From a virus (Duplodnaviria; Heunggongvirae; Uroviricota; Caudoviricetes): DNA of 29,964 nt. Shown piece after piece: positions 1 through 20,635 of the stretch. Where the stretch lies: the IMG/VR virus record IMGVR_UViG_2778261393_000002. One strand, 5' to 3'. A program made the translations under genes and the position numbers. The notes beneath the pieces were generated by a model. It did no database searches. It was given only the letters and a program-made list of their open reading frames with translations, and was not told where the DNA came from. How positions within the stretch are numbered: the first letter of the stretch is position 1; every line of letters starts with the position of its first letter.

Positions 1-355
1 CTGCCCGGTAAATTTCTCACGAAACTGAATGCGGTTAAGGTCGGTAAGTGACAGGTTAATCATGGCGCACCTCCTGGCGAATACGGGCGGCGAATACCAT
101 CACGCAGCCAGCCGGAGATTGCTGGCGTGCTTCCTGTTCGTTGGTGGCCTCAATGGTAATCACGCGCGGCTGTGCCGTGCTCAGGGCGATAAAACGCCAG
201 ATGTATTTATTCAGGTTGTGCGAGTCCCGCCCTTGCGGGTGTGTGGTATGATTTCTCATAGCTACCTCGATACTGTTGCTATCGTTGGTGGTTAGAAGCC
301 CCGTTACTGCTCCAACAGTGCGGGGTTTCGTCGTTTCTGTGCCTTGCATCAACAA

Positions 356-439
356 GGTGTAAGACACAATGTAAAATAACGGTGTCTTACACGTCAACCC
401 TTCAAAATAATTTTTTTTCGTGTATATTGTCTTACACCA
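356..439 (+). promoter_or_regulatory. Operator-like triple motif and putative promoter upstream of small gene 459..638
   Basis: GGTGTAAGACAC at 356-367, with reverse-complement copies GTGTCTTACAC at 382-392 and TGTCTTACACC at 429-439. The third copy overlaps a TATATT -10-like hexamer at 423-428. AAGGAG SD at 447-452 precedes the ATG at 459. Confidence 0.4.
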
Positions 440-458
440 AAAACATAAGGAGTTAGAC

Positions 459-638
459 ATGGCAACAGGTCCAAAGAATGCAAAATCACAATCTGTAACT
501 GCACGTATTGCCCATGAAATTATTGAAGGCATGGAAAAAGTGAAAGAAGAAGGCGAAAGTACAGGACAGTTTATAAGCGCAGCCATGCGTGGCGAGATCA
601 AACGCCGCCAGCGCCGCCAGGCCAAAGAATCAGAATAA
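459..638 (+). CDS. Small basic protein, 59 aa, function unknown
   Basis: ATG at 459 is 7 nt downstream of AAGGAG. Translation MATGPKNAKSQSVTARIAHEIIEGMEKVKEEGESTGQFISAAMRGEIKRRQRRQAKESE has a basic C-terminal tail. Family not recognised. Confidence 0.5.
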   Translation: MATGPKNAKSQSVTARIAHEIIEGMEKVKEEGESTGQFISAAMRGEIKRRQRRQAKESE

Positions 639-647
639 AAACAACCT

Positions 648-664
648 GCGCCGTGGTGTGAGGA
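648..664. repeat. 17-bp direct repeat GCGCCGTGGTGTGAGGA, copy 1
   Basis: Exact 17-mer, 10 nt after the stop of ORF 459..638. It can pair with CCGGCGC at 668-674 to form a hairpin. Confidence 0.6.
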
Positions 665-695
665 ACTCCGGCGCATTGCTTTACAGGTACACAGA

Positions 696-890
696 ATGAC
701 CAACAAAGAATCAACCAATACACCATCACCGGCACGGAAAAGACGGCGCAGAAAGATAGAGCATGAATCAGAAAGATTCGCGCCATGTGCTTTTGCCCTT
801 GAGCAATTCCTTAAAGAGTACAGGCGCACAAAAATGGGGTCGCATACCTGGAAAACATCACGACATGGTGATGTTGAAGAGCAGAAATAA
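696..890 (+). CDS. Hypothetical small basic protein, 64 aa
   Basis: Open frame with ATG start and weak SD. Its stop is followed by the second copy of the 17-bp repeat. Coding status uncertain. Confidence 0.25.
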   Translation: MTNKESTNTPSPARKRRRRKIEHESERFAPCAFALEQFLKEYRRTKMGSHTWKTSRHGDVEEQK

Positions 891-899
891 CCACTATCA

Positions 900-916
900 G
901 CGCCGTGGTGTGAGGA
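900..916. repeat. 17-bp direct repeat GCGCCGTGGTGTGAGGA, copy 2
   Basis: Exact second copy, 252 bp from copy 1, again about 10 nt after a small-ORF stop codon (890). Confidence 0.6.
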
Positions 917-1561
917 TCCATGGCACAAAGAAGTATCCAAGAGAAAAATGATGGACGCACAGAAACTAGATATACTCACCTCCTTTCTGGAAGAACGTAA
1001 ACGAAAATGGGGGATAAAACCCCATCCTTCCACCAGAGAATTACCAAGAGCATCAACAGAGTGTTTTTTGCTTGAGGATTTCATCAAAAAGAGCAGCCCT
1101 GTTTTGTGCAGGAATAAGCGATACAAGTAATCATTACCCACTCCAGGCAACAGGGAAAAAATTCCGCTAAAGCTTTGCCCACCAGCCGCAAATGTGGCAT
1201 TGTTGGTGATGCTCATGCGTTGGGGATAACGTGTAGCTTGTGTTGAAGGGCCACCGTAGCGGGTGGCCTTTGTTTTGCCTGTTATCCGGCAATTGTGGCG
1301 CTTCGTCACACGGTTGATATAATCCCACTGCTCAGATTCATTTTTTGCGCAGTAGGTTAATTGTTCACAAAGGCGCTCCGGCAACGGGGCGCTTTTTGTT
1401 TTTACCCACCAGCACAATAAAAATCTTCATTTTCCATTTTTGTAAAATTTCATGCTTTCCGGACGGCTGACCATATATCATTTTTTAGCAGAAGATTTTG
1501 CCTTGCTGGTGGGTAGCTTCCCGGTTAACACGATGTACCGTATAATCAGCACTGCGAGTGG

Positions 1562-2140
1562 TTACTGAATACGCTCACCAAAGTAAAACTCATGCTGATA
1601 TTCACGTATCAGCCTTTTTTCTTCTTCCTCCAGCTCACGCTTTTTGCGCTTACATGCCTGTAGCTCCCTCCCCTTCTCGCTGGCACTTATCTGATATTGC
1701 TCTTTACGGCGGGAAAAATCCTGTAATGCGCCCCACGGGATACCATAAGCCCCCGTTTTTCTGATACCCGGTATCACATTTCTGAATACCCAGTTACTGA
1801 AACGATGGGCGAACGTGCCAGGCGTCGTTGCTTTGCGGCTACGGGCTATTAGTTTGTAGAAACCTGACTCGCATACAGTTCGCATTGTTTGATTTCCGCC
1901 AAGGGTGGGTATTAAACACTCCCCCTTTTCATCATCATCGAGACGGCGTAACGCAACCTTGTGATCAACAATTTCCAGCGCAGCGCACACGTCAACTGCA
2001 ACAAACCACGGATCGCCGTTCAGATACACCACGCGAACGTTCACACCATCAAAGCGCAGAACGACCAGATCACGAATATCACAGAATTTTTTTACTAGAC
2101 GAGCGTCACCTTTGCCCGTCACGGCAATATTTTTATTCAT
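1562..2140 (-). CDS. Bro-N domain protein, phage antirepressor-like
   Basis: 192-aa ORF. N-terminal region (VRVVYLNGDPWFVAVDVCAALEI ... ESGFYKLIARSRKATTPGTFAHRFSNWVFRNVIPGIRKTGAYG) has the conserved Bro-N pattern. C-terminus is a charged coiled-coil-like tail. Confidence 0.7.
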   Translation of the reverse strand: MNKNIAVTGKGDARLVKKFCDIRDLVVLRFDGVNVRVVYLNGDPWFVAVDVCAALEIVDHKVALRRLDDDEKGECLIPTLGGNQTMRTVCESGFYKLIARSRKATTPGTFAHRFSNWVFRNVIPGIRKTGAYGIPWGALQDFSRRKEQYQISASEKGRELQACKRKKRELEEEEKRLIREYQHEFYFGERIQ

Positions 2141-2158
2141 CGCTTTTTACCTCACATA

Positions 2159-2183
2159 CAAAAAACCCCGCATTGAGCGGGGC
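2159..2183 (-). terminator. Rho-independent terminator downstream of alpA
   Basis: Stem CCCCGC (2166-2171) and GCGGGG (2177-2182) with 5-nt loop, followed on the minus strand by a T-run (plus-strand AAAAAA at 2160-2165). Confidence 0.6.
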
Positions 2184-2199
2184 TGTGTTTATCTCCTGG

Positions 2200-2466
2200 T
2201 TATTGCTGTTTTGTTTTTTCCGGTTTCCATCCTGGGTGCCAATCGCCACGGATCCACGCCTGAATCTCCGAGAGACGATAGCCAGCGGCACGTTCACCAA
2301 TCTTAATACGTTTTGGGAACTTACCTGTCTTTTCCAGTTTCCAGCGTGTTGAATTTGCCAGCGTAGTAAGTGCCACGCATTCTTTTTCACGAATGACACG
2401 ATCAATATCCGGCATTGCAGTAAAATCTTTTTCATCAACAAGTGAATAAACTGACATATCAAACAA
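2200..2466 (-). CDS. alpA: AlpA-family phage transcriptional regulator, excisionase-like
   Basis: Translation contains DRVIREKECVALTTLANSTRWKLEKTGKFPKRIKIG, typical of AlpA/Vis-type winged-helix proteins. Sits immediately downstream of and overlapping the integrase stop. Exact start uncertain (M1, M4 or M18). Confidence 0.75.
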   Translation of the reverse strand: MFDMSVYSLVDEKDFTAMPDIDRVIREKECVALTTLANSTRWKLEKTGKFPKRIKIGERAAGYRLSEIQAWIRGDWHPGWKPEKTKQQ

Positions 2467-3700
2467 CCTCTTTACTCAGTTCAATAACGTTATTATTAAA
2501 TCCGGCTATCGTGTTAAGGTAATTAACCCACATATTAAGAACCTCAAGTTTTTTCTTTACATGCTTGCTTTTATTATAAACACCCGCCACACCTTTAACT
2601 TTATGACCAAGCAGAAGCTCTACAATATAAGGATCGGCACCCATATCGTTAAGCATTGTTGAAAATGTACGCCTGAAATCATGTATGCACCACAGACCAT
2701 TTACATCATGCCCTAGCCGCCTGCATATCCGGCTTGCTGCTCCTGTTATTGTCGCTCGCTTCAGTGATCTACCGATAACACAATCCCGGTGCTTTGTTTC
2801 CGCATAAAGATTAATAACCCATTGTTTTATTCCATCAGGGACTGGTCTTACAATAACCTCGCCGTTCTTGCTGTGCTCTTTTGGAACTGTCCAAATCCAG
2901 TTTTTTAAATCCCATTCTTCCCAAGTGGATAACCGCGCCTCCTGCTGACGGCAACCAAACACCAGGCAGATAACCATAATTCTTCGGTTATGTATTGATG
3001 AAAGGGTAAGTAAATTGTTGCCATAGGCATAAGACCATACGTCAGCGGCTTCATTAATACTCAGAACACGATCCCTTATGCCTGCTGAACGTCCAACATA
3101 ACTAACGTTAATATCACCGAATGGATCGCAACTAATGTATTGCCTGATACGGCAAAAACGTAACGCCTGTTTAATATCAAGAAAAATAGCACCAGACATA
3201 ACAGGAGCATTTTTTTTAATTCTGTCAAATACAGTAAGCCAGGTATGCAATTTGCACTGTTCTATAGCCATATCTCCGATATATGGAAAAATATGCTTTT
3301 CAAATCTTTTTATTAAATACTCATGCTGCTTTCTGGCTGTCCTGGCGTGATTATCGTACCAGTAAAGCACCGCATCCCTTACAGTTACAGGGCGCATGTT
3401 TTTTTCAGCTACAAGTTTTATTTGTCTGCGAGGATCCAGATTTTCCGCCAGCCATTCACGGCACTGGTCGCGTAATCTCCTGGCGGCTGCCAGAGACATA
3501 TCAGGATAACGCCCAAGGGTCAGCCATACCGGAGGGGCATCCCTGCCGCCAATACGATAGTAAAAAACGAAACTAATTCCCCCAACCACGCTTACACGAA
3601 CAGATAGCCCCCGCCCATCAGCCATGATTTTTTGTCTGTCCTGCGGCTTACCTGCAAGACTTTTCAGAAGTTTGTCAGTCAGTTTATTCTCGATAGCCAT
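2459..3700 (-). CDS. int: Tyrosine integrase, P4-like
   Basis: 413 aa from MAIENKL (start codon 3698-3700). Phage-integrase catalytic region visible (HDFRRTF ... LLGHK ... VYN). Paired with alpA as in P4-family elements. The listed ORF extends 24 codons further upstream to 3772. Confidence 0.85.
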   Translation of the reverse strand: MAIENKLTDKLLKSLAGKPQDRQKIMADGRGLSVRVSVVGGISFVFYYRIGGRDAPPVWLTLGRYPDMSLAAARRLRDQCREWLAENLDPRRQIKLVAEKNMRPVTVRDAVLYWYDNHARTARKQHEYLIKRFEKHIFPYIGDMAIEQCKLHTWLTVFDRIKKNAPVMSGAIFLDIKQALRFCRIRQYISCDPFGDINVSYVGRSAGIRDRVLSINEAADVWSYAYGNNLLTLSSIHNRRIMVICLVFGCRQQEARLSTWEEWDLKNWIWTVPKEHSKNGEVIVRPVPDGIKQWVINLYAETKHRDCVIGRSLKRATITGAASRICRRLGHDVNGLWCIHDFRRTFSTMLNDMGADPYIVELLLGHKVKGVAGVYNKSKHVKKKLEVLNMWVNYLNTIAGFNNNVIELSKEVV

Positions 3701-3718
3701 ATGTAGCCTACACGTCAA

Positions 3719-3772
3719 TTTGCAATACACACCCCATCCAAACGCCAACTTGCAATACACATTGCAATACAC
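3719..3772. repeat. Three direct copies of TTGCAATACAC upstream of the integrase start
   Basis: Copies at 3720-3730, 3750-3760 and 3762-3772. The last two are tandem with a 12-bp period. They lie about 20-70 bp upstream of the int start codon. Confidence 0.6.
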
Positions 3773-3849
3773 AAAACCGCGAAAAACACGAAAGGTAATG
3801 AACGGTCATCATAAATACAAAAAACGACATTCCAGACATATCAAGGGTT

Positions 3850-4716
3850 TTAGTGGAGTTGATGAATGGTGGCGACAACTACGGGGAGATAATAGACATA
3901 AATGGCGCGAACCACCGCCGACTGCAGTTGCGTGGCCTGCAGTGTGTCGAGCATCTTGAGACGCTCCATTACAGAATAAAACTGGTTGGCCCCGCGGGTC
4001 TGCCCGTCTTCCTGTGGCTGAAACACATGGATCATTCCCGGTCGTCCGGAAGGCAGTGTTGCCGTAATTCGTGTCCATTTACTGACACCGTAGCCGGGCC
4101 AGTCATCATCCTGAACATGGTAGGCCAGCGCTTTTCCGTGTCGGTTTATTTCCACCCCGGCACGCATAAAACGATCGCCGGTACCATAACCGGGTGTACT
4201 GACACGCTTCGGGCTGATGGTTTTGAATTTCGTCCGGAATAATGACGTGGATTCCGCATCCCATACGGGCTGGACAAAAATTTCACCGTTAAACGTATGG
4301 ACCCCCACCCCTTCACGAATGAATTCGGTAAACGAACGACGCCCTTCCACATCCATCGTACCAAACACCGGATCGCAGTATTCCATCCACGCCGCCTCAA
4401 CATCTTCAATAAAAGCATGTGAATCTGCTTCCGACATCCCCAGCCAGCGCCAGTTGGGACGGTAACTCAGACGAAACATGTGCCCGACAATATGATCCTT
4501 ATGAATTTCCACTGCATTCGATGCAATACCGTTGTTACGGACCAGCTCATCCGCGCGGGCGTTACCCAGATGAATGGAAGGTAAGAGCGCCACGTCGGCA
4601 CTTTCCGGTGCAGGCAGCCATTCTGCCATTTGCCCACCGAACCCGGAACCACCACCAGAATATCCCATGCTTTGCCGTAAAGGCTGCCCATGAATATCCA
4701 CCAGTTCCCCGTTCAC
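3850..4716 (-). pseudogene. B: Lambda-like portal protein (gpB), N-terminal fragment only
   Basis: 288-aa ORF co-linear with the lambda gpB N-terminus as I recall it (YSGGGSGFGGQ, LLP..GNARADELVRNNG, LFRTKFKTISPKRVSTP, IHVFQPQEDGQTRGANQFYSVMERLKMLDTLQATQLQSA). Similarity ends near residue 271 (about nt 3900). Lambda gpB is about 533 aa, so the C-terminal half is missing. Confidence 0.8.
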
Positions 4717-4925
4717 AGCCCCACTCCTGCCGGGCCACGACGCCGTCCGGATACACCCAGCGCACTTTCCAGCTCTTCAATATACTGACGCAGTTCACCA
4801 ATTGTCGCCCGCGAATACTGAACCTGACGCCCGTCCTTGCTGACGGAAACCACAGCACGTCCGATCATCAGTTCATGTAACGCCCGGCGGGCATCGCATA
4901 GCATTTCATGCGTATAAATCATCAC
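4713..4925 (-). CDS. W: Head-tail joining protein, lambda gpW-like
   Basis: 70 aa. ARRALHELMIGRAVVSVSKDGRQVQYSRATIGELRQYIEELE ... RRRGPAG matches the lambda gpW pattern. Position between terminase large subunit and portal as in lambda. Confidence 0.75.
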   Translation of the reverse strand: MMIYTHEMLCDARRALHELMIGRAVVSVSKDGRQVQYSRATIGELRQYIEELESALGVSGRRRGPAGVGL

Positions 4926-6845
4926 TTATCCTCCACTCAGAGCAGCCGCGATTTCTTCAATAGTCATTTCATCGTCGTCCTGTTCATCTCTTCTGGCGCG
5001 GGCCAGTGCATCCAGATCCAGTTGCCACCGCTGAACGGAAATGCGCAGCGCTGCATAGGCATACACCAGACAGTCCAGAGCTTCATTACGCCGTTTTCTG
5101 GCATCCCACTGGAGTTTCACCCGCCCGTTCACAACTTTTTCAACCAGCTCTTCTGCCACGAGTTGTTTAGCTTCAACATCAGAAAAAATGTCCGGGTTAT
5201 CCGGAAAACGGAAGGTATACGGTGCGACTTCACTGGCAGATACCACCGGCAGGGCAAAACGCGCATACAGCATTTCCTTGACGGTATCGGAACCCACCTC
5301 ACACAAAAACACCCCACGCTGGTTTCGCTTTTTTGGCATGGTGATCACCGGCTTGCCGTACACCGACGCCCCTTTGATGGGGAGCACAAAAAAAGTGCCG
5401 TGTTTTCTGGATCGCTGATACACAATGTCCTGGTCAATACCACCGGTATCCCAGCAGACGCGGGAAATGGAAATTTCAGTGCCATCTGCATGACGGTATT
5501 TTTTCCGGATCACGGCATCAACGCGTTTAAGGGTGTCCTCATCTTCCGGTCTCCCCATGATGATCTGCTTGTCAATCAGAAAAGCTTCTTCGCCAGGAGC
5601 CCAGCCCCAGACATAAATCTCATAACGGTTTTTCTGAGAGTCGATCCCTGCGGTCAGGTAAACCACCCGCAGGGGAACCTGCGCATCATAGTGGCAGACT
5701 TTTTCCAGCAATAACTCAAAGCTCAGTTTTTCTGCCACAGCCTCTTCATAAGGCTCCCCCAGCGTGGTGTTAATGAACGTCTTGACGCCATTCGGATCCT
5801 TCAGTGCATCAAGCCAGTCATAAACAATCTGTACCCAGGTGGTGAACGGGCTGTATGCCGTCCAGATGTGGTACGAGATTGAGCGCGGTGGCGGGATTTC
5901 CTCATCACCGGCGCTGTAAAATGTCAGACCGTCACGCGTCCACATCCCGGTATTGTCACAAATCCACCGCCCGTCGGTCTGGTCAAGTTCCGACTGACGG
6001 ATCGCGCAGCCATTATGTTCACACAGGTAATACACCGTCTCCGGCTTGCCCTTCTCCCATTTCAGGCCAAAGGTTGTCGCATCATCGCCAAACTTCAGAT
6101 ACTGGGCTTCACCACAATGAGGGCATGGCACATAAAACCGCATAAAATGTGCAGATTCGTTCGCGGCTTTTTCAATCTGGCAAAAACCTTTAATTTTGGG
6201 CGTTGAGCCGCGTATGGATTTAGGCCATACCGAACCTTCGATACGCTTATCGCCAAGCAGAGTTGGTGAACCTTCTTTTTCCACATCCGGTTCAAACGAG
6301 GAGAGTTCGTCATAGCAGACCACATCCACAGATTTTTCACGGTAGTTTTTGGCAGCAGCTCCGCCCAGACACCAGAATCCCACACCGGAGGAGAAACGTT
6401 TCAGGGTAAGCGTGTTGTCCCGATGTTTTCTGCCAAACCACGGAGCCAGCTCCAGTAATACAGGAACGTCTCTTATCGTTGGTTCGACATGGGATTTCAT
6501 AAAATCTTCTGCCGCAGAATCTGTCGGCTGAAAAAGCAGGCTGTTACGGGATTTGTGTTCAATAAAATAAGCCTCCACCCCCAACAGCATTTTGGTGTAA
6601 CCAACACGCGCCGATTTAATCAGATTAACGGTGCGGATCCGGTCATTCCCCATGCTGTTCATGATGGCAACCTGAAACGGCAGTGTTTCCCATTGCCCGG
6701 GAGTATATGAAGACTCTTTTGGCAGATAATAATGCTGATCAGCCCACTGAACTGTCGTCAGTGGTACCGGAATATTGAGAGATACAAGCCCTGTTGCTAT
6801 CGCACCGGCTGCATTAGCTGCCTTCTGTGCGTCTGAAATCATCAA
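4926..6845 (-). CDS. A: Terminase large subunit, lambda gpA-like
   Basis: 639 aa, co-linear with lambda gpA along the whole length ([94 protein letters not shown]). Confidence 0.95.
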
Positions 6846-7362
6846 TCCACCCGCCTACGTTCTCACCAGCTTTAGCTGCAACGTTGGAGGCTTTTGCGAT
6901 TTCAGTTTTCACCACATCAAGGTGTGACGGTGAAATATCCGGATATTTACGCTGTAATGTCAGCGGCACACGTACAAGTATCCCCGAAATCTCCTGTGCC
7001 ACACGTTGCAGAATGAAGGTAAACAATTCCGTTTCCAGTACCAGCCCTTCTTCGCGGGCATTTTTCAGTTCCTGTGCATCAGCCTGTGCTTTTGTGAGTC
7101 GGTAGCGCTCATAGTCAATGGTGCCGGGTTGTAAATCTGATTCCGCAGCCGCACGCAAATCCTCGGTCTCTTTGCGGAGTTTTTCGTTTTCAATATCGGC
7201 TTCGCGCTGCGCATACCACTGAATTGCCATGGCGGTATCAAATACAGATTCAACCCCCTTACTACCACCAGAGACACAAGAGAGCCCCTGAGACTGCCAG
7301 CGTTCAATCGTTCGTGGATCCACGTTGAAAATTTCCGCGAGCTTCTTTTTATTAACCTTCAT
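6814..7362 (-). CDS. nu1: Terminase small subunit, lambda Nu1-like
   Basis: Start taken at [12 protein letters not shown] (codon 7360-7362), matching the lambda Nu1 N-terminus MEVNKKQLADIF. Conserved stretch [27 protein letters not shown]. The 3' end overlaps the terminase large-subunit start. Confidence 0.9.
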
Positions 7363-7387
7363 AAAACATTTCCATATCAAATGCAGG

Positions 7388-7440
7388 GTCCGACATGGAA
7401 GTGCTCAAAAACGTCTTTTTCGGGCACTTTCATGTCGGAC
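7388..7440. repeat. 53-bp palindrome between cos and the Nu1 start
   Basis: Perfect 10-bp arms GTCCGACATG (7388-7397) and CATGTCGGAC (7431-7440) with partly self-complementary interior. Lies in the cosB-equivalent region. Confidence 0.6.
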
Positions 7441-7500
7441 CTTTTACGGATGTGATTGATGAAAAAACAATGAGTTATACACGAGAAGTACCGACACGCT

Positions 7501-7560
7501 TTTTCCCGAAAAATTTTCATAAATAGCGAAAATCCGCGCCGCTGCCGCCCCGTGGCAGAC
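7501..7560 (-). other. Cohesive end site (cosN/cosB-like)
   Basis: Minus-strand sequence GGGGCGGCAGCGGCGCGGATTTTCGCTATTTATGAAAATTTTTCGGG closely matches the lambda left end GGGCGGCGACCTCGCGGGTTTTCGCTATTTATGAAAATTTTCCGG as recalled. cosN analogue at about 7539-7550, upstream of Nu1. Confidence 0.75.
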
Positions 7561-7905
7561 CACCCCACCGGAAGGACCCGTACAAATAGAGTTATTATTA
7601 ATTACATTTACAGTAGGAATGATGTACATCATTGAAACACCATTCAGTCATATACCGACAGCATTCGGTGTTGCACTTCATAACTCTGCGACTACGGTTA
7701 TAAAAGCATTGGCTACTTTTGCCACCGGCAAATCTTCAATGGATTTCCCCTGCCGGTTTTTTATTTTCATCGATGCATAACATTGCTTTTACATCAATAG
7801 CAGCTATTGTCAGTAGTATGTTGTATCGATGCATGGGTGGTATTGGCGATCTTCGCCGACCGGTTCTGTGTAGCTCCCTATGACCGGTTTTTTTATTTCT
7901 AAGAT

Positions 7906-7940
7906 TATAGAAGTCCTTCACTGTATGAAGGACTTCTATA
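7906..7940. repeat. 35-bp perfect palindrome
   Basis: TATAGAAGTCCTTCA (7906-7920), loop CTGTA, TGAAGGACTTCTATA (7926-7940). 15-bp perfect arms. Preceded by a T-run (7889-7895). Confidence 0.7.
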
Positions 7941-8045
7941 ACGCTTCTTACTTTGTAATTTTCGCACCTTCCGGTAATTCCATAGGTTAAAAAAACCTCA
8001 TAATCTCTGACAATTTGATCCTACCCACGTAATATGGACACAGGC

Positions 8046-8912
8046 CTAAGCGAGGTTCTGGTTTTCAAATTGTTCCGGACTGAGGCCGCCACACCAACTG
8101 TGCCGCCGCCACCGATTGTAATCACATTCGATATAATTAAACACCGTTGCCCGCATTATTTCCCGGCTGATAAAGTGTTCTCCATGGATACATTCCACTT
8201 TCAGCGAATGAAAGAAGCTTTCCACGCAGGCATTATCGTAGCAGCAACCTTTTGCGCTCATACTTCCACGCAGATTATGCCGCTTCAGTTGCGCCTGATA
8301 ATCTGCTGAACAGTACTGGCCTCCACGGTCCGTGTGAACGATAACGTTCCAGGGCCTCTTACGCCGCCACAGCGCCATCTGCAGGGCATCGCAGGCCAGT
8401 TGCGCCGTCATGCGTGGCGACATTGACCAGCCAATAACGGCACGTGACCACAGGTCAATGACCACTGCCAGATACAGCCAGCCTTCATCTGTACGTAAGT
8501 ACGTGATGTCTCCTGCCCACTTCTGGTTCGGGCCACTGGCGTAAAAATCCTGCTCCAACAGATTTTCTGACACAGGCAGGCCGTGTGCGCGGTAGCTGAC
8601 CGGGCTGAACTTCCGGGAGGCCTTTGCCCTCAGTCCCTGACGGCGCAGGCTTGCCGCCACGGTTTTTTCGTTAAAGGGGTAACCCTGAGCACGCAGTTCA
8701 TCCGTCAGGCGTGGGGCACCGTAACGCTGTTTTGACCGGGTAAAAGCCGCGAGGACAACGCTGTCGCAGTGTTGGCGGAACTGCTGACGCGTGCTTATCC
8801 TTGTCCGCCGCTGACACCACGTATACCAGCCGCTGCGGGCCACCCGGAGCACGCGGCACATTGCTTTGATGCTGAACTCAGCCTGATGTTTTTCAATAAA
8901 GACATACTTCAT
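8046..8912 (-). CDS. insF: IS3 transposase OrfB
   Basis: 288 aa with DDE transposase/integrase core (WAGDITYL ... HTDRGGQY ... [11 protein letters not shown]). Matches IS3 InsF as remembered. Confidence 0.95.
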
Positions 8913-9217
8913 TTCAGGCGCTTCGCGAAGTATGTCGCGGCCTTTTGGAGGATAGCCAGCTCTTCATCCCGTTCTGCCAGCTGGCGTTTGAGACGTGCAA
9001 TCTCGGTAGACATCTCCAGTTCACGTTCAGAAGACGTCTGCTGATTTTGCTGTTTACTGCGCCAGTTGTAGAGCTGTGATTCATACAGGCTGAGTTCACG
9101 GGCTGCGGCAGTAACACCGATGCGTTCAGCAAGCTTCAGGGCTTCACTGCGAAATTCAGGCGAATGCTGTTTACGGGGTTTTTTACTGGTTGATACTGTT
9201 TTTGTCATGTGAGTCAC
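8909..9217 (-). CDS. insE: IS3 transposase OrfA (HTH)
   Basis: 102 aa ending in a leucine-zipper-like segment. Its stop overlaps the orfB ATG in the -1 frame, as expected for IS3-family programmed frameshifting. Confidence 0.95.
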
Positions 9218-9370
9218 CTCTGACTGAGAGTTTACTCACTTAGCCGCGTGTCCACTATTGCTGGGTAAGATCAATTATCATCCACACAGGATAAAGACAT
9301 CTGACCAGATTGCAGTATTAAAAGCTCTCATGCAGACTACGCACCCCATATCATATACAAGGTTATACTG

Positions 9371-9781
9371 ATGGCTCAGGTTGCCCTTTTTAAAGAAATA
9401 TTTGATCAAGTGCGGAAAGATTTAAACTGTGACCGATTTTACTCTGAACTAAAACGTCACAATGTCTCACATTACATTTACTATTTAGCCACAGGTAATA
9501 TTCACGTTGTATTGAAAAATGATAACGCAGTGTTAATAAAAGGACTTGAGGAGGTTGTGAATGTTAAATTTCGCAGAGACACGCGACTTATAGAAACTTA
9601 CTCTCATAAGTTGAAATCAAGAGAAATCACATTTCATGAATACAGGGAAAATCTGGCTAAGGCTGGAGTTTTCCGATGGGTTACAAATGTCCATGAACAC
9701 AAAAGGTATTACTATACCTTTGACAACTCATTATTGTTTACCGAAAGCATTCAGAACACGACACAATTTTTTCCACGCTAA
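9371..9781 (+). CDS. DUF1398 / YbcV-like prophage protein
   Basis: 136 aa ([47 protein letters not shown] ...) closely resembles DLP12 YbcV as recalled. Upstream of and co-oriented with bor. Confidence 0.7.
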
Positions 9782-10005
9782 ACCATATCGCCCGGTTTAA
9801 TCCCCCTCACTATCCGGCACTCCCACACAGGAGTTACCAGTCGGTACTGAGGACATAGTTAATCCGGGAATACAATGAAAATACAGCACATCTGGCATAC
9901 TTTAATAAACATTAAAAATATGAGATTTCAACTCATTGTTTAGGTTTTGTTTAAATTTCTACAAATACGATTCAACAACCTTAAAAACACAACGGGAATA
10001 ACACT

Positions 10006-10299
10006 ATGAAAAAAACGCTACTCACTTTCACGCTGGCCCTGCTTATCTCTGGATGTGCTCAACAGACGTTTACTGTTGAAAACCAACCGACAACAGTAAC
10101 ACCGAAGGAAACCATCACTCATCATTTCTTCGTTTCTGGAATTGGTCAGAAGAAAACTGTCGATGCAGCCAAAATTTGTGGTGGCGCAGAAAAAGTTGTT
10201 AAGACTGAAACCCAGCAAACATTCGTAAATGGATTGCTCGGTTTTATCACTTTCGGCATTTATACTCCGCTGGAAGCTCGGGTATATTGCTCACAATAA
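10006..10299 (+). CDS. bor: Bor lipoprotein (serum-resistance lipoprotein)
   Basis: 97 aa with signal peptide and lipobox LISGC. Sequence near-identical to lambda Bor/BorD as recalled. Convergent with the lysis genes as in lambda. Confidence 0.85.
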   Translation: MKKTLLTFTLALLISGCAQQTFTVENQPTTVTPKETITHHFFVSGIGQKKTVDAAKICGGAEKVVKTETQQTFVNGLLGFITFGIYTPLEARVYCSQ

Positions 10300-10307
10300 T
10301 ATCATAA

Positions 10308-10329
10308 GTTGCCCATCTCGATGGGCAAC
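10308..10329. terminator. Perfect 10-bp stem hairpin after bor
   Basis: GTTGCCCATC TC GATGGGCAAC at 10308-10329, 9 nt after the bor stop. No strong T-run, so terminator function is uncertain. Confidence 0.45.
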
Positions 10330-10616
10330 TCTATCTGCACTTGATGCGCAAATAACAACCTCCAAAAGAAAAATAGCAAAAGCAGACCGTGTCACATAAA
10401 GACGTGCAGTTACTTTCTTTTCTATTCCTTTCATAACAGACGGCTTTAAAAGAAGATTTATACGATCTGCCGAGGATTTTTCTCTGTACTCACTGATTCA
10501 TATTCTCCTCTTTGTTTGGTATAAAAACCGAACTCTTTCTCCAGTCGTTTTTCTTGTTCGGTAAGTCTAATAACAAGCTAACCGCAGGTTGGATTTACTG
10601 GCCTCATTAATGCCAA

Positions 10617-11162
10617 CTACACCACCACGCGCTCTTTCATCCAGCCATACACGAACGATTCATTAGCCTCACGTTTTTCTGCCAGTTCAAGGTAGCGATC
10701 TCCCTGCGTACAGTTTAGCGCTGTCAGAATCACCAACTCACCATCCCTGCCACGTTTTGACAAATAGGCGCGTAACGCATTAATGGTACGTGGGCCGATA
10801 CAACCATCTGCATCAATGTCCGGATACAACTCTCCTTTCTGGTTAAATACATTAAGCCAGCGCTGAAGCATTCTGGATGCCACTGACGGCCCCATGTTTA
10901 CGCCGGTATCACACAATTCAGCAGCGATCTCCGGAGACAGGCTCGCAACCTTGTGAAAACGTGGCCCGTACCAGTAGTCCGCTTCAAGAATTTCGAGGGC
11001 CTGCCCACGCGTCAGGTCACGAATATCCCCCTGATAACCGTGTGCACGGGCAACTTTTCCAGTAATGCCCCATTTAGTCGGACCACCTTTATCATCAGGG
11101 TGGTTGACGTAGCCGCCCTCTTTGCCAAGAACAGCATCAAAAATTTCATCTTTCGACTTCAT
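10617..11162 (-). CDS. Endolysin, GH108-type lysozyme with peptidoglycan-binding domain
   Basis: Start taken at MKSKDEIF (codon 11160-11162). Motif LGKEGGYVNHPDDKGGPTKWGIT is characteristic of the GH108 N-terminal domain. Follows two holin-like genes. Confidence 0.75.
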   Translation of the reverse strand: MKSKDEIFDAVLGKEGGYVNHPDDKGGPTKWGITGKVARAHGYQGDIRDLTRGQALEILEADYWYGPRFHKVASLSPEIAAELCDTGVNMGPSVASRMLQRWLNVFNQKGELYPDIDADGCIGPRTINALRAYLSKRGRDGELVILTALNCTQGDRYLELAEKREANESFVYGWMKERVVV

Positions 11163-11163
11163 C

Positions 11164-11442
11164 TCAGCGCCTTCGTAATACAAAGATTTTTGAAACGTTC
11201 CCACGAGCACGAACCACCAGCACGCAGAACAGCAGGTTAAAAAACACTTCCAGCCAGCCCGTTGCTAACGGGCGACCACACAGATAGCTGAGGGGCGCAA
11301 AGGCATACAGCAGCATCAGCAACCAGGCCAGCCATGACATCAGCGGTTTATGTCTGGAATCACGACGACGATAAAAAAAGAGCGTCAGCACGATAACCGT
11401 GCATAACGCCACATTCAGCAATCCGGGAAGGTTACTTAACAT
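11164..11442 (-). CDS. Holin or antiholin-like small membrane protein
   Basis: 92 aa from MLSNLPGLL with 2-3 predicted hydrophobic helices and a basic C-terminus. Located between a holin-like gene and the endolysin. Confidence 0.55.
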   Translation of the reverse strand: MLSNLPGLLNVALCTVIVLTLFFYRRRDSRHKPLMSWLAWLLMLLYAFAPLSYLCGRPLATGWLEVFFNLLFCVLVVRARGNVSKIFVLRRR

Positions 11443-11824
11443 TGCCGCCTCCTCCACCCCGCAGGCGGGAGAACAGGCCGGACACCAGCGATGCAATATC
11501 CTGCTGGTGGATGAACGAGAGAATCTTCACCGACACCACCGCCACCAGCACCGCACACAGAGCATCCGCCGATGTACCGTCATAACCTGTTTTTGATGCA
11601 ATCCAGGCTGACAGCACATGCGCACCCAGCACGCCAACGATAAACGACACCAGAAAATGCGCTGCCACACGCCAGGCAGATAGTGCCTGCGGCATTGTGG
11701 CCACAAACAGCGCCCCGGCAAATGCGCCAAACACAATCCCGAAATCCGTTCCGGTAAACAGCCCGAATACCGTCGCCCCGCCGAGCGCCGCAGCCGTGCC
11801 GGAACCGGATAAGGGTTCAGACAT
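11432..11824 (-). CDS. Putative holin, multi-TM membrane protein
   Basis: 131 aa from MSEPLSGSG (SD GGAG upstream) with several Gly/Ala-rich hydrophobic helices. First gene of the lysis cassette. Confidence 0.6.
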   Translation of the reverse strand: MSEPLSGSGTAAALGGATVFGLFTGTDFGIVFGAFAGALFVATMPQALSAWRVAAHFLVSFIVGVLGAHVLSAWIASKTGYDGTSADALCAVLVAVVSVKILSFIHQQDIASLVSGLFSRLRGGGGGNVK

Positions 11825-12003
11825 ACTTTTTCTCCTGTAAATAAAAAAGGGCCACTGTCGGCCCGTAAAAAAACAACACCCCGTCAAAGGCACCCGCAGA
11901 TACCTTTTGTGTGGTGTTATCTGATGTGATGTGCGCCGGACGTGGCGCGGATATAAAAAAGGCCCGCCGCAGCGAGCCTGTTTTCAATGAGTGCAAAATT
12001 CAA

Positions 12004-12747
12004 TTATTCTTGAGTAACACTTAAACTCATCTCATTGAATGCAGCCATCCTGTAACCTGCCGGTGTAACACCAAAATAACTCCTGAATACGCTGATAAAA
12101 TAAGATGTAAAATTATAGCCACACTGAGCAGCGATTCTGTTGATGGCGCAACGAGATTGATTCAACAGCATTGCTGCCATTCTCATTCTCTCTGTAAGCA
12201 ACAACTCACTGAAACAGGTGCCTTCTTCTTTCAGTCTTTTTTTTAACAAACTTTCACTGATACATAACCGCGAAGACACATCTCTCAGAGTCCAGTTTGC
12301 TGCAATGTCCGTACGAAACAATGCACTAAGCCTGTCACTAATATTGCCAATACACGCGGTCAGAAACGACGAAAACATTTTCTCTGATGAGAAAAACGCC
12401 AGACACGAAAAGGAAAGCATTTCCGCTAAATTGTCCGTATGAATCTTTTCCTCACAAAGATAATCAATCAGGATGCCCATCAATTCTGCCTTGGGAAAAC
12501 TCACGCAAAGATATCGTGGTATTTGCCGGACTAAAACTACATCCTGTTTTTCGTCTCCACACAACAGGTAACGGATAATTGTCGATTCACTGAGACTTAT
12601 TCGCCGAAAACATTCCGAAAAGGGCAATAACGATCCAGCTCCCCCCCTGACAAGAAGTGCACTACCACTTTCCAGAGAGAGCTCTTTTCCTTCAAAGAGC
12701 ACAACAAACGGGGAATGAACAAAAACAACAGAACAAGCTTCATTCAT
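12004..12747 (-). CDS. AraC-family transcriptional regulator, AppY/GadX-like
   Basis: C-terminal AraC HTH signature (SESLLKKRLKEEGTCFSELLLTERMRMAAMLLNQSRCAINRIAAQCGYNFTSYFISVFRSYFGVTPAGY). N-terminal CSVVF motif shared with DLP12 AppY as recalled. Start taken at MNEACSVVF. Confidence 0.8.
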   Translation of the reverse strand: MNEACSVVFVHSPFVVLFEGKELSLESGSALLVRGGAGSLLPFSECFRRISLSESTIIRYLLCGDEKQDVVLVRQIPRYLCVSFPKAELMGILIDYLCEEKIHTDNLAEMLSFSCLAFFSSEKMFSSFLTACIGNISDRLSALFRTDIAANWTLRDVSSRLCISESLLKKRLKEEGTCFSELLLTERMRMAAMLLNQSRCAINRIAAQCGYNFTSYFISVFRSYFGVTPAGYRMAAFNEMSLSVTQE

Positions 12748-12969
12748 ATCAATTGCCCTGACATTACTGGTCACAAGATAAGTATATATCGATTTACAAA
12801 AATACAAGCCGAAAGACCAGTATTCGCAACCACCAGCGCGTTTAACGTCCTGTACCGTTTTTCAGGCATAAAAAACCCGCTCAGTGGCGGGTTTAAGCTG
12901 TTTGGCGTAGTAACCACTCTTAACAGGATATTCAACTTTTTACGATCGTAAAGCGTTCGGGGAAAATTT

Positions 12970-13458
12970 TTAAAACCGTTCCAGAGTGCATACCATCGCA
13001 TCGGCGGGTAGTTTTTCCGTGAAGTCGACCTGACCGTGTTTATCGAAGTGGATCAGTAATGCGCATCCATCATTTTGGGTTGGGGTGTTTTGTGCTGCTG
13101 GTGGTTGTTTTTGGCTGAAATAACAGTCTTCCAGTTTTTCGAACACTTCCCACGCCTGATCGGTTTCCAGCATTTTGGCGTGACGGGCTGCTCCGCGTTC
13201 TGTCCAGAGGATGAGGTGCTTTGTACGCGGTGCAACTAAGTTACTTTGAGTAACCTTGTTCTTAAATTCCCGCAACTCAGCCCCTTCCAATTTGAAGTAG
13301 TGTTTCCCACAAACAAAACGCTCGGCATTGCGTGTATAGTTCACTTTGATGTTATTAGTTTCGGTGCCATAAAGTTGTGCCAAAAGCTCGGTAGTAATGA
13401 CAGGGATTTGGTTATGGGTGATCGGGGAAAGAGTTTCAACTGAGATTTGAATAGCCAT
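12970..13458 (-). CDS. ORF6N-domain DNA-binding protein, antirepressor-like
   Basis: 162 aa. N-terminus (ITTELLAQLYGTETNNIKVNYTRNAERFVCGKHYFKLEGAELREFK) fits the ORF6N/KilA-N-like pattern. SD AAGGA upstream. Confidence 0.6.
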   Translation of the reverse strand: MAIQISVETLSPITHNQIPVITTELLAQLYGTETNNIKVNYTRNAERFVCGKHYFKLEGAELREFKNKVTQSNLVAPRTKHLILWTERGAARHAKMLETDQAWEVFEKLEDCYFSQKQPPAAQNTPTQNDGCALLIHFDKHGQVDFTEKLPADAMVCTLERF

Positions 13459-13612
13459 AGGATGATCCTTTTTCTATGTGAATCATCACCACTGCTGACG
13501 CCAATCAGTATGGTGGTGAACTGTGCAGGGTTGGCGTAACCGGGAAAAAGGAACCGGCGCGGATCGCTCCGCCCCCACACAGCCCACCATTGAGATGTGA
13601 CAGTGCAAACGA

Positions 13613-13637
13613 CAATAAAAAAGACGCTGGCGCGTCT
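13613..13637 (-). terminator. tR'-like Rho-independent terminator downstream of Q
   Basis: Stem AGACGC (13622-13627) and GCGTCT (13632-13637) with 4-nt loop, then a U-run on the minus strand (plus-strand AATAAAAA 13613-13620). About 95 nt downstream of the Q stop, as expected for a late-promoter leader terminator. Confidence 0.5.
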
Positions 13638-13731
13638 GTTGTCGCCTTTTTCATCCGGGACGCCAATCCCGACGCCAGATTTTGCTGGCGCGTGAGGAAT
13701 ATAGCCCCGGACAATGTGTCTGGTCAAGCTC

Positions 13732-14127
13732 CTACATGATTCGTTCTACGTATCTGTCCATCTCCAGTCGGATATCAAGCATCATCAACATGCCATCAAT
13801 AACCCCTTCCGCTTTCTGCAGGCGCTTGCCAATACAGGTATCCGAACACCCATGCTTTCGTGCCAACCCCATAAAAGTCATTCCACCTACGTAATAATCC
13901 ACCAACAAATCGTGCAAATCCTGATTTTTCTTGTTCAACCGGGCCATACAGCCACAAATTATCATTGCATCATCATCAGAACACTGAGGGCGTGATTTCA
14001 CTTTCGGCGGGATTAATCCTTTAAAACCAGCAGCGATTGACGCCCATGACACATCTTCGTGATTGTTCGCAGCCCATGCTCCCCACCGCTCCATAACCTG
14101 CTGAATATCACGCACCATCGTTATCAC
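13732..14127 (-). CDS. Late-gene antiterminator Q (QuuD / phage 82 family)
   Basis: 131 aa ([60 protein letters not shown] ...) closely resembles DLP12 QuuD as recalled. Start may be M1 or M4. Confidence 0.8.
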
Positions 14128-16656: not shown

Positions 16657-16812
16657 TTACTCCTCAGGTTCGTAAGCTGTGAAGACAGCGACCTCCGTCT
16701 GGCCGGTTCGGATTCGTACCTCGCAGAGGTCTTTCCTCGTTACCAGTGCCGTCACAATGACGGTTAAACAGATGACGATCAGGGCGATTAACATCGCCTT
16801 TTGCTGCTTCAT
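16657..16812 (-). CDS. hokD: Hok/Gef-family type I toxin
   Basis: 51 aa MKQQKAMLIALIVICLTVIVTALVTRKDLCEVRIRTGQTEVAVFTAYEPEE with AAGGAG SD, matching HokD/RelF as recalled. An overlapping upstream frame (to 16869) is the mok-like reading frame. Confidence 0.85.
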   Translation of the reverse strand: MKQQKAMLIALIVICLTVIVTALVTRKDLCEVRIRTGQTEVAVFTAYEPEE

Positions 16813-17023
16813 AGCCTGCTTCTCCTTGCCTTTCGGCACGTAAGAGGCTAACCTAGATTTGCCGTTCATAGATTGAGCCTCAGATTAATGTTAAGCGTCT
16901 TGCAGGACGCGTAATGTTAACTGGGGCTTTTCTCTATCTGCCTTTGGTGTTCATGCCTGAGACAGATAGCCTCAAGCACCCGCAGCCATTCTACTTAACT
17001 CCCGTTACCTCGCCAATATAAAA

Positions 17024-17445: not shown

Positions 17446-18699
17446 TTACATTTTATCAATTTCAGAAATGATCCTATCAATTTCATCAATGCTTGCTTGA
17501 ATTGTTAGATTATTTTTTATTATCTCAAGTAATTCTATTGCTCTTCTTTTGGGCCTTGATGACACCAGTTCTGAATTTGCTCTTTCATTCTCCACGAACA
17601 ACCGTGAGAGAGCCATCAATTGATTACTATTTAACACATCTAAAAATGGTTGAAGTACTAAATGTGCATCAGATCTTCCCCAGTAATTCCCCACCCAAAC
17701 AGTAAGTATTTCTTGATATACATCTTCAAATGCAATAGATGGAACATGAGGTCCAAATTGTATAAGTGCCTTGGCTGCTCTTTCTTCATCATTCCAGCCG
17801 TAAGATGTATCCTTAGCTTTAGCTAGCTGTTTAACCGCATGTCTGTATAAACTTGCCCTAGCAGCATCAGGTATAAATTTCACACCATTAACTTTTACTA
17901 AAGTCTCTAAAATTCTTATTTTTGCTCCTTTATCCTCACTTGTATCCGATTCGGGCTCCAGCATAAATGAGTGATATCTTTCCCCCGCTGTTTTTTTAAG
18001 GTCATCATTAGATCTTTCCCATGCTTGTTCAAACAACTTGCTAGCATTAACATAAGCAGGATTTTCCCCCTTAGTTATTAAATCCAATAAAAATCCAAAT
18101 GTTATTCTTATATCAGCTTGCTTAAATGCTCTTATTTGATCTTTAAGTAAGTCTATGCTCTCAATTGATAGTTCAGATTTTTTTATGGGTTCAAATAATC
18201 CAGATGGCGAATGTCCAGGGTCTGGCATATCAGATTCGAATAAATTCTTCTGGAGCATAAGAGCCAAAGCAAACACATCCTCAGACTCTACTTTACTATC
18301 ACTTGCATGGGCTGGAGAGGCATGGTTTCTCATCCAATTGATCATTTCTAATGATTTTCCAGCTTTCTTATGCAGAACCCCTAATTTGGTGGCTCCACTT
18401 ATTAGCACTAAATCATCTACACCTGACCATCTCTCGTTTATTGTTTCACCATCTTTATCATATTTTTTACGACCACTATCATCCTTTATTGCGGAAAGGA
18501 ATAAGTCTAAACCATAAGCCTCAATTCGCCGCCTAAGATTATGAATGGATGCATTCCATATATCTAAAAGAGCATGATCAGGGAAGCCAGAATCTAACAA
18601 CTTTCTAGCTTGCGAAAGGAATTCTATTTCAGTATTAACTGTTGCAGGAAAATTAGTTGTTGATGGCGAGCTTAATAAAACCGGGAGATTTTTTGACAT
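17446..18699 (-). CDS. Hypothetical protein, 417 aa (cargo gene B, candidate defence effector)
   Basis: Long uninterrupted ORF in an AT-rich segment with SD AAGGAAA upstream. No family recognised. Contains an R-x6-H motif (MRNHASPAH) of the kind seen in HEPN RNases. Confidence 0.8.
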   Translation of the reverse strand: MSKNLPVLLSSPSTTNFPATVNTEIEFLSQARKLLDSGFPDHALLDIWNASIHNLRRRIEAYGLDLFLSAIKDDSGRKKYDKDGETINERWSGVDDLVLISGATKLGVLHKKAGKSLEMINWMRNHASPAHASDSKVESEDVFALALMLQKNLFESDMPDPGHSPSGLFEPIKKSELSIESIDLLKDQIRAFKQADIRITFGFLLDLITKGENPAYVNASKLFEQAWERSNDDLKKTAGERYHSFMLEPESDTSEDKGAKIRILETLVKVNGVKFIPDAARASLYRHAVKQLAKAKDTSYGWNDEERAAKALIQFGPHVPSIAFEDVYQEILTVWVGNYWGRSDAHLVLQPFLDVLNSNQLMALSRLFVENERANSELVSSRPKRRAIELLEIIKNNLTIQASIDEIDRIISEIDKM

Positions 18700-19312: not shown

Positions 19313-20434
19313 TTAGAGCTTATAAAGTTCAATTAATCTGGATTTTTCTCTGTCAAATTCTTCATCAAGATTTGAGAAGTCTGGAAGTGTAACCATTAAA
19401 TCCTTAAGTTGATGAATAACATTCCAGACATCGTAATGAATAAAGGGATTTAAGCCAATTACATTCCCCTCATCATTATTTTTAGATTTCCCTACACCAC
19501 ACAATTTGATGAATTTGTTGATTGCAGTTGTTTCATTCCAGTCCGAGACAAAAAGAAGCAAGGCAGATACAGCCAAAAGGGGGTTATTTTTTTTAACAGC
19601 GGATATACCCCTGATTTTCCTAAAAAGAAATTCGTGATGCCTGGTTATTTTTTGTGCAACTCTTATCGTTGCTTCATATTTTTCTTTAAGCAACCTTCTA
19701 TCATAAACCTGATAACCTCGATCTCGTGCTACTAATCGATGTGCTTGTTTAGTAAATGTGGTACTATTCACAAGATTATAGAAAACAGAATTATTTTCAT
19801 TAGTCATGTCGATCATCAATGATGGATATTTGAATCTTAACGAACGATACACTTCATCGTTTATATCAAACCAGGATTTATTTTTCCTCTCTTCATCTAC
19901 AATATATTTACTTTCTCCCTTACGGGAATACATGCTGGCCCTTATTAGATTGATCATGTGAGGGCTATAGTTAACAGAAAAAGTGCCTGACTGGCGTAAT
20001 TCTGTAAACCATTGCCGCATGTTTCGAATATCTTCCTGATTGAACTCATCATGTTCAATACCTCTACATACAAGCTCGCGAATTATACTTGTAATCTCAG
20101 AACCTGAGGTGCCGAATTTTATAAAACCATCCCTTGATGAATCTATTTGCTTATCATTACCACTGTAATGATCGCAAAATACTTTGTGTGCATCAGTTCC
20201 GTCTTTTGTTCTAAACGAAAAATGAGATTGGCTGACTATCTTATTTGTTCTTTTCGAATAACCTTCTGAAACAACAATCGCACCGCTTACATTGCAAATT
20301 GGGCACTCTGCATCAAAGGCAACAAATTCCTTGAAATCACTGAAATTGAGTGCGTTATCTGATGAGTAATGGTTTAACAATTGAACCATGTCCAATTCCT
20401 TTTTGAATGTACGAGAATAGACCGTAATTGCCAT
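19313..20434 (-). CDS. Hypothetical protein, 373 aa (cargo gene A)
   Basis: Start taken at MAITVYS (codon 20432-20434) with SD AAGGGAG 7 nt upstream. No family recognised. N-terminal Cys/His cluster (ECPICNVSG ... HKVFCDHY). Confidence 0.8.
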   Translation of the reverse strand: MAITVYSRTFKKELDMVQLLNHYSSDNALNFSDFKEFVAFDAECPICNVSGAIVVSEGYSKRTNKIVSQSHFSFRTKDGTDAHKVFCDHYSGNDKQIDSSRDGFIKFGTSGSEITSIIRELVCRGIEHDEFNQEDIRNMRQWFTELRQSGTFSVNYSPHMINLIRASMYSRKGESKYIVDEERKNKSWFDINDEVYRSLRFKYPSLMIDMTNENNSVFYNLVNSTTFTKQAHRLVARDRGYQVYDRRLLKEKYEATIRVAQKITRHHEFLFRKIRGISAVKKNNPLLAVSALLLFVSDWNETTAINKFIKLCGVGKSKNNDEGNVIGLNPFIHYDVWNVIHQLKDLMVTLPDFSNLDEEFDREKSRLIELYKL

Positions 20435-20635
20435 TTGAACTCCCTTCATCATAATTTTGGTTGTATGAAATATTATCGCATAAAGATACTAATGAGCCAG
20501 TAATATAACTAGAAACGACTTTTTGTGGTTCAGCGAACTAGACGTCCGCTCCTGGCACAAAGCGGACAACCACGCTAGCTCTACCCTGTGCCACAAAATG
20601 TCAATTTGCATCTGAACTAATGCACTTTAATCTCG

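Follow-up and report, generated by a model that had tools for sequence, protein, structure and literature searches.

The 29,964-nucleotide stretch analysed here (IMG/VR record IMGVR_UViG_2778261393_000002, hereafter the window) begins with an integration module that meets the late genes of a lambdoid prophage. We hold it to be very likely that positions 1-3908 make up the end with the integration, Bro and regulatory parts of a Gram-negative phage-inducible chromosomal island (PICI) of about 10.8 kb that sits in the portal gene of this prophage, that is, a PICI embedded in its helper (helper-embedded PICI, or HE-PICI) of the type B:Phage_portal_2:241. A total of 491 HE-PICIs have been mapped to 14 sites in lambda-type late genes, B:Phage_portal_2:241 among them (Tommasini, Mageeney & Williams 2023, PMC10111431). 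The class, the insertion site and these attachment (att) sequences are already known from that paper; the only part of our analysis outside its description is a predicted switch made of a small ribbon-helix-helix (RHH) protein and three operators.

Insertion in the portal gene

The N-terminal half of a lambda B type portal gene occupies 3909-4716 on the minus strand (Pfam Phage_portal_2, 2.7e-59) and is collinear with lambda gpB. Its match covers only positions 2-242 of the 354 in the profile, and the reading frame continues into the satellite up to a stop at 3850. That the match ends at 242 of 354 suggested an insertion and not mere adjacency. The satellite/helper boundary is the 7-bp crossover core GCGCCAT (3902-3908, minus strand), which lies in the int-proximal att junction (ggttcGCGCCATttatgtc on the minus strand) and equals the identity block 'gcgccat' given for the portal-241 subgroup in the supplementary table of the HE-PICI paper (PMC10111431). 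An earlier reading of the letters alone (the sequence-only reading) had let the element end at 3772 and had placed it directly next to a prophage with packaging genes and a cos site. The packaging genes and the cos site are indeed present, but the right boundary is the core, and the element lies inside the portal gene.

Both attL and attR contain GCGCCAT, and in near-identical genomes the other portal half is found 10.8 kb away behind the same core. One relative (CP057879.1; locus L007 in our numbering of related loci) is 99.9% identical to window 1-13700 and reaches 7.5 kb past the window's left end; there the far end of the element reads cataaGCGCCATgtatgcc, and behind it comes the portal gene's C-terminal half. 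When the cores were joined in silico, excision gave an in-frame portal, LQSAVVRAMYAATIES, collinear with lambda gpB (LQSAIVKAMYAATIES). The predicted excision junctions are GTTCGCGCCATGTATGCC for attB (the restored portal) and CATAAGCGCCATTTATGTC for attP, and the far-end sequence predicted between the doubled arm motif and the portal C-terminal half is taaGCGCCATgtatgcc. The satellite brings no replacement sequence for the part of the portal gene that it removes; the portal is disrupted, and the geometry permits exact restoration of the gene. In addition, int, alpA, the replication genes and nu1-A-W-B' all lie on the minus strand, so that the element is co-oriented with the late gene that it interrupts.

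The arm-type sites point to the same class. A doubled motif, tgTGTATTGCantgTGTATTGCa, has been described as unique to HE-PICIs, with one copy 81+/-2 bp upstream and another 132+/-2 bp downstream of the attP centre (PMC10111431). In the reconstructed attP, the downstream doubled TGTATTGC motif starts at +132 from the centre (window 3751-3773), while the half-sites of the upstream doubled motif, read from L007, start at -98 and -86 and end at about -79. The window's arm-type repeats span 3719-3773 on the minus strand, with the doubled motif tgTGTATTGCaatgTGTATTGCa at 3751-3773 and a third half-site at 3722-3729. The window and L007 agree across the junction with the attL and attR flanks given for the HE-PICIs Eco10760.11, Eco13983.11 and Eco8720.11 (PMC10111431). 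Compared by description, the portal-241 group (e.g. Eco14386.11) shares with our element the portal target codon, a size of about 11 kb and the doubled TGTATTGC motif, and no difference was established at this level. Att flanks that match catalogued members and the arm motif of the clade make the integrase a candidate member of the HE-PICI clade.

Only one junction is visible in the window, and the portal reading frame simply stops there, as it would if an ordinary chromosomal PICI or P4-like island abutted a prophage remnant whose portal had been cut by an unrelated deletion. We consider this very unlikely. At L001-L007 and L009, portal halves flank the element and rejoin in frame at the common 7-bp core; the att sequences are those of the catalogued HE-PICI group; and no tRNA or chromosomal att target was found near the element in the window. 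The hallmarks of P4 were not found either. Rfam searches of window 1-4000 (gathering and E<=1 thresholds) returned no CI/C4-type RNA and no isrK, and the Pfam and PHROG matches for the L007 satellite genes included neither a P4 alpha-type primase nor any Sid/Psu/Delta-type annotation. The Arm-DNA-bind_3 integrase and the AlpA/Vis-like protein do resemble those of satellite P4, but P4 has a P2-like helper and a CI/seqA immunity RNA, whereas the helper here is lambdoid and no such RNA was found. On these grounds a P4-like satellite was rejected. As the Rfam searches returned no immunity RNA in the satellite part, the RNA-repressor mechanism reported for some PICI Bro zones does not apply here. 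The earlier proposal of a satellite or PICI-like element therefore stands for a PICI with a lambdoid helper, on the strength of AlpA, the 'redirecting phage packaging' (Rpp) homologue and cos, and falls for a satellite of the P4 type.

Gene content and related copies

The module next to the junction consists of int, alpA and bro, all on the minus strand. The satellite tyrosine integrase is of the P4/Arm-DNA-bind_3 type (2459-3700, 413 aa; Pfam Arm-DNA-bind_3 1.2e-18, Phage_integrase 6.5e-14). Its longest open reading frame is 2459-3772, where a 72-nt GTG extension beyond the ATG at 3700 overlaps the arm-type repeats; the ATG at 3700 is the likely start, and public genomes carry exactly this 413-aa call. 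A single nucleotide separates the int stop codon from the ATG of alpA (2200-2457, 85 aa; Pfam Phage_AlpA 3.8e-15; phrog_2790), a member of the excisionase/transcriptional activator family. The interval between alpA and bro holds an intrinsic terminator at 2184-2164 (minus strand; 8-bp stem with 6 GC pairs, then a T-run), and the 'Bro zone' follows with a Bro-N domain protein (1562-2140, 192 aa; Pfam Bro-N 5.6e-16; phrog_2593 'anti-repressor' 2.5e-77). On all of these points the sequence-only reading was borne out: a P4-like integrase immediately followed by AlpA, a strong terminator, a Bro-N protein and, further left, a divergent small gene with operator-like repeats (459-638 on the plus strand against an Icd-like gene at 56-259 on the minus strand). 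The Bro zone varies even among genomes with an identical integrase.

Since int and alpA are contiguous with phage late genes, they might be taken for the integration module of the prophage itself. We give next to no credence to this, because a lambda-type integrase of the prophage's own (Arm-DNA-bind_1, 28302-29420) lies at the opposite end of the prophage, and because AlpA beside an inward-facing int is a PICI signature that is nearly absent from prophages (Table 1, PMC10111431).

Within a public assembly collection, 188 indexed blocks contain exactly this 413-aa protein; 25 contigs were read, and eight places (L003-L010) are shown here. Both portal halves and the common core occur at six of the eight (L003-L007 and L009), with element sizes of 10.66-11.24 kb; the remaining two are an off-target insertion (L008) and a rearrangement (L010). 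At L001 and L002, two E. coli loci of about 85% identity, an island of about 11 kb lies between two annotated portal halves of an otherwise complete lambdoid prophage. Its genes run in the order int, AlpA, Bro-N, YlcI/YnfO, Icd-like, DUF4222, primase, SSB, major capsid, decoration protein, helix-turn-helix protein and 'terminase small subunit'. The exact satellite variant is absent from complete RefSeq E. coli genomes, where the best match has 75% coverage and 87% identity.

The part of the satellite left of the window was read from L007. As the sequence-only reading had supposed, the window holds only part of the element, about 7 kb of which lies beyond its left end. That reading had also named primase/replicase and capsid-redirecting genes as the things to look for there, and such genes were found, whereas ordinary chromosomal genes or a decayed island were not. 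The leftward DNA encodes a DUF4222 protein and an AAA_25 helicase-primase (phrog_906 and phrog_3228), SSB, a Phage_cap_E (gpE-like) capsid protein, an HDPD (gpD-like) decoration protein, a 141-aa product that resembles the C-terminus of head proteases/scaffolds and a 146-aa homologue of RppC, the PICI 'redirecting phage packaging' protein (PDB 6HLK, E 4.8e-34). The satellite's own cos site, GGGCGGCAGACG...CGCTATTTATGA, stands immediately upstream of the RppC homologue.

Taken together, the element has what is expected of a Gram-negative PICI: int and alpA in the window, helicase-primase, SSB, the RppC homologue and cos in L007, a size of 10.8 kb, and no tail or lysis genes. Its order also matches the four zones of HE-PICIs (Integration, Bro, Replication, Late). 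The founding HE-PICI, Eco567.11capE of E. coli NRG857c (11capE below), likewise interrupts a late gene of a lambdoid helper in the orientation of that gene, and its attP brings no replacement sequence. It differs in its target, the capsid gene E (E:Phage_cap_E:80), and in its 10-bp identity block, whereas our element targets the portal with a 7-bp core; moreover, 11capE was reported to lack terS (PMC10111431), while an element of the window's type has an RppC homologue. EcCICFT073, the model Gram-negative PICI (Fillol-Salom et al. 2018, PMC6092414), is similar in int-alpA, the replication module, cos, Rpp, capsid homologues, its size of about 11 kb and its lambdoid helpers. Unlike the window element, it is integrated apart from its helper prophage and so acts on it in trans only, and it lacks the doubled arm motif (PMC10111431).

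The gpE-like major capsid and gpD-like decoration proteins are also what a capsid-forming PICI would encode, which assembles capsids of its own and takes nothing but tails. This is extremely unlikely for an element of 10.8 kb that has no genes for a portal, a prohead protease, a large terminase or head-tail connectors, and whose Rpp and cos are the hallmark of PICIs that hijack the helper's terminase and capsid machinery.

Three further loci deserve description. CP057879.1, the genome of L007, holds a second satellite copy with an identical integrase (L008, 9793-20620) in the chromosomal gene cstA, where the CstA profile match starts at 174. Its attL is ATCCCCAT and its attR is GCGCCAT, with only CCAT in common. 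This off-target integration suggests that the integrase was active recently. Along ybdN-ahpF, the chromosome next to L008 has at most 99.4% identity to E. coli, which makes the host E. coli or a very close relative. At L010 (CP056940.1, from about 20591) the int-side junction is in the portal while the far junction, GCGCCATGcagtacgccgatcagg..., is non-portal; the far end underwent rearrangement or deletion. Finally, L016 (NZ_CP148328.1, 1-10790) is circular, is annotated as plasmid pZ1323HEC0475-3 and has the gene content of a PICI (int, helix-turn-helix protein, YlcI/YnfO, Icd-like, DUF4222, primase and a protease-capsid fusion). We considered whether this circle is an excised copy of the window satellite and rejected the idea: the circle lacks the HE-PICI arm motif and is a different PICI, likely caught as an excised circle or episome.

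A predicted repressor-operator switch

The left part of the window contains two divergent units. Leftward runs the gene for an Icd-like small protein (56-259, minus strand, 67 aa; NF033153 phage_ICD_like 1.7e-19; phrog_6196 1.9e-45), which heads an operon continuing into the replication and late genes. Its stop codon overlaps the ATG at 63 of the next satellite gene (1-63, minus strand), whose first 21 codons exit the window's left end and whose product in L007 has 70 aa (13638-13850; phrog_340 5.6e-23). Rightward runs a YlcI/YnfO-family small gene (459-638, plus strand, 59 aa; NCBIfam YlcI_YnfO_N, NF041551, 7.3e-19).

Between them, the divergent promoter region at 349-438 holds three GGTGTAAGACA copies together with promoter-like hexamers. 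The copies are O1 (356-366, plus strand), O2 (383-393, minus strand) and O3 (428-438, minus strand), and none of 100 shuffles gave three copies. Drawn as operators, O1 and O2 are one position longer each (356-367 and 382-393). Promoter-like sites lie at 397-368 in the leftward direction and at 349-377 and 401-428 in the rightward direction, and the operators overlap hexamers on both strands. Specifically, O1 and O2 bracket the leftward site at 397-368, and O3 overlaps a rightward one.

The 59-aa YlcI/YnfO product has 105 homologues, all named YlcI/YnfO or unnamed, and we found no functional literature on the family. Ribbon-helix-helix proteins (Arc/MetJ/CopG) consist of an N-terminal beta-strand, a helix, a G-x-S/T/N turn and a second helix, and they bind repeated operators as dimers. 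The YlcI/YnfO product is predicted to be a DNA-binding protein of this kind. We compared the switch among eight alleles, those of the window, L001, L002, L009, L012, L013, L014 and L016. In each of the eight, three repeats stand about -100, -75 and -30 relative to the YlcI/YnfO ATG, and among the alleles two promoter elements are conserved, CGTCAA beside the middle site and GTATA(T/C)TG ahead of the proximal site. The repeat sequence and the beta-strand of the protein change together across the eight alleles. The strand SVTARIA or SLTARIP occurs with a GGTGTAAGACA-like operator, ALKARVP with GGTGTGG(T/C)CCAC, QVSVRLP with GGTGAACACCAC, TIAARVP with GGTGTTAAACACC, MTTVRIP with GGTGTATTTCA and QLNARFP with GGTATTCAC. 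In L009 the operators differ, yet the N-terminus of the Icd-like protein is unchanged; for this reason the RHH protein is preferred over the Icd-like protein as the candidate operator binder.

The same three-operator layout is shared by HE-PICIs, by PICI-like elements residing at other sites and by L012, an element with P4-like features (it carries Ogr_Delta and a Zn-ribbon/Toprim primase in addition to Icd-like and YlcI-like genes). The divergent Icd-like/YlcI module is widespread in E. coli: at least 80% of the 645-bp query was covered in 865 of 5426 complete genomes. The global repressor of Gram-negative PICIs was called unclear in the 2018 PICI paper (PMC6092414). We tentatively propose, with somewhat less than even confidence, that the YlcI/YnfO RHH protein may be this master repressor, and that it would act through the three operators to shut off leftward transcription, to regulate itself and to confer allele-specific immunity.

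The remaining features of this region are minor. A 64-aa reading frame (696-890, plus strand; phrog_21027 1.6e-28) belongs to the same rightward unit as the YlcI/YnfO gene, and L009 encodes an identical protein. For a further 60-aa frame (948-1130, plus strand), searches of the Pfam, NCBIfam and PHROG profiles returned no family match, and its coding status is uncertain. Two terminator-like hairpins (1246-1271 and 1369-1396, plus strand) end the unit, convergent with bro. A 42-nt repeat occurs at 634-675 and 886-927 (76% identical, core GCGCCGTGGTGTGAGGA), each copy after the stop codon of a plus-strand frame, 459-638 and 696-890 respectively; its placement suggests a duplicated cassette junction or a common RNA element. 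On the other strand, a 453-aa frame (56-1417, minus strand) was rejected as a gene. It is rich in Cys and Ser, is antisense to family-supported small genes, has no family match on record and is not kept in L005, L006, L008, L009 and L010, while gene callers report a 342-aa product from it in L003, L004 and L007. The frame is probably spurious, save for the real Icd-like gene in its final 67 codons.

The helper prophage and the proposed cycle

On the other side of the junction, upstream of the portal in the same minus-strand late operon of the helper, lie gpW (4713-4925), the large terminase subunit TerL (gpA, 4926-6845) and Nu1 (6814-7380), and beyond them the cos region at about 7440-7549, also on the minus strand. 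A search near nu1 for the exact lambda cosN pattern found nothing, because the cosN here is the variant GGGCGGCAGCGG, followed by CGCTATTTATGAAAATTTT, as alignment with the lambda left end showed. The helper also encodes Q (13732-14127), a CI-like repressor (22984-23622) and lysis genes.

From these parts a cycle can be proposed. Upon helper induction, Q-antiterminated late transcription of nu1-A-W-B' would extend into int-alpA and across the terminator that follows alpA. Excision of the satellite by Int and AlpA would come next; it would repair the helper portal only late in the cycle and delay the supply of portal protein. The excised circle would replicate by its own helicase-primase and SSB, the Rpp homologue and the satellite cos would redirect the helper terminase to satellite DNA, and the satellite's gpE-like and gpD-like proteins would contribute to capsids. 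In the lysogen, the candidate RHH repressor on the three operators would regulate its own promoter and shut the one that drives the Icd-like, replication and late genes leftward, and so keep the satellite quiet. In 2019, Fillol-Salom and colleagues reportedly found that Rpp turns the helper terminase towards the cos site of the PICI; the PDB entries 6HLK and 6HN7 are named and titled as Rpp structures. The steps of excision, replication and packaging are drawn by analogy from the work on 11capE and EcCICFT073. In EcCICFT073, AlpA is a helper-dependent activator needed for induction (PMC6092414), and in 11capE, excision of the satellite follows excision and replication of the whole composite (PMC10111431).

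Several points weigh against this account. First, the completeness of the element in the window's own genome is judged from a 99.9% identical relative, and its second att site would lie outside the window. Second, the 3' end of int contains a promoter-like site (2652-2624) that could give alpA expression independent of the postulated read-through of the late transcript into int-alpA. Third, the link between the RHH protein and its operators is correlative and comes from eight alleles. Fourth, experiments on HE-PICIs concern 11capE only, whose virions were not recovered (PMC10111431). Last, an IS3-family insertion at 8046-9217 could impair the late transcripts that reach the satellite and the packaging genes. 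This insertion, on the minus strand, consists of orfA (8909-9217, HTH_Tnp_1) and orfB (8046-8912, rve) and sits between the lysis genes/DUF1398/bor and cos-nu1 of the helper; it is present in L004, L005 and L007 and absent from L003, L006, L009 and L010.

The insertion in the late region, together with the rearranged attR flank of L010 and the published remark that many HE-PICI helpers seem truncated and that no virions were obtained (PMC10111431), would fit a satellite that is an HE-PICI by descent but is now inert, a genomic fossil abandoned in a crippled helper. We regard this as unlikely. The int, alpA and bro genes and all downstream satellite reading frames are intact, as are the core and arm sites, and the integrase is 100% conserved in many genomes. 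The second copy in cstA of CP057879.1 points to recent Int-driven transposition. Furthermore, the IS3-family element is oriented with late transcription, and polymerase modified by lambda Q is generally known to resist terminators.

Other features of the helper were recorded along the way. Directly downstream of Q and upstream of an ORF6N/KilA-N-type gene (12970-13458, minus strand), the segment 13509-13704 (minus strand) matches three Rfam families, C4 antisense RNA (74 bits), isrK (79 bits) and c4-a1b1 targets (52 bits). It thus looks as if the helper, and not the satellite, has an antisense-controlled antirepressor module of the P1/Gifsy type. An AraC-family regulator (HTH_18/HTH_AraC; 12004-12807, minus strand) lies as cargo between the Q/antirepressor region and the holin genes. 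A sok antitoxin RNA (16807-16981, minus strand, 110 bits) marks a hok/sok type I toxin-antitoxin locus. In the early region, two minus-strand frames of 417 aa (17446-18699) and 379 aa (19313-20452) have a low GC content (0.32-0.39) and no Pfam match, and they may be accessory or defence cargo.

For HE-PICIs as a class, the element mainly confirms that they are common and easily overlooked, since annotation shows only a portal gene that is cut short, with an island 'beside' a prophage. A satellite in this position would hold an essential helper gene hostage until it excises. For annotation, this means that a split portal gene is no ground for scoring a prophage as defective. If the proposed switch is true, the RHH repressor with its three operators would fill a regulatory gap in Gram-negative PICIs, for which the AlpA activator alone is known, and would give a function to the uncharacterised YlcI/YnfO family.

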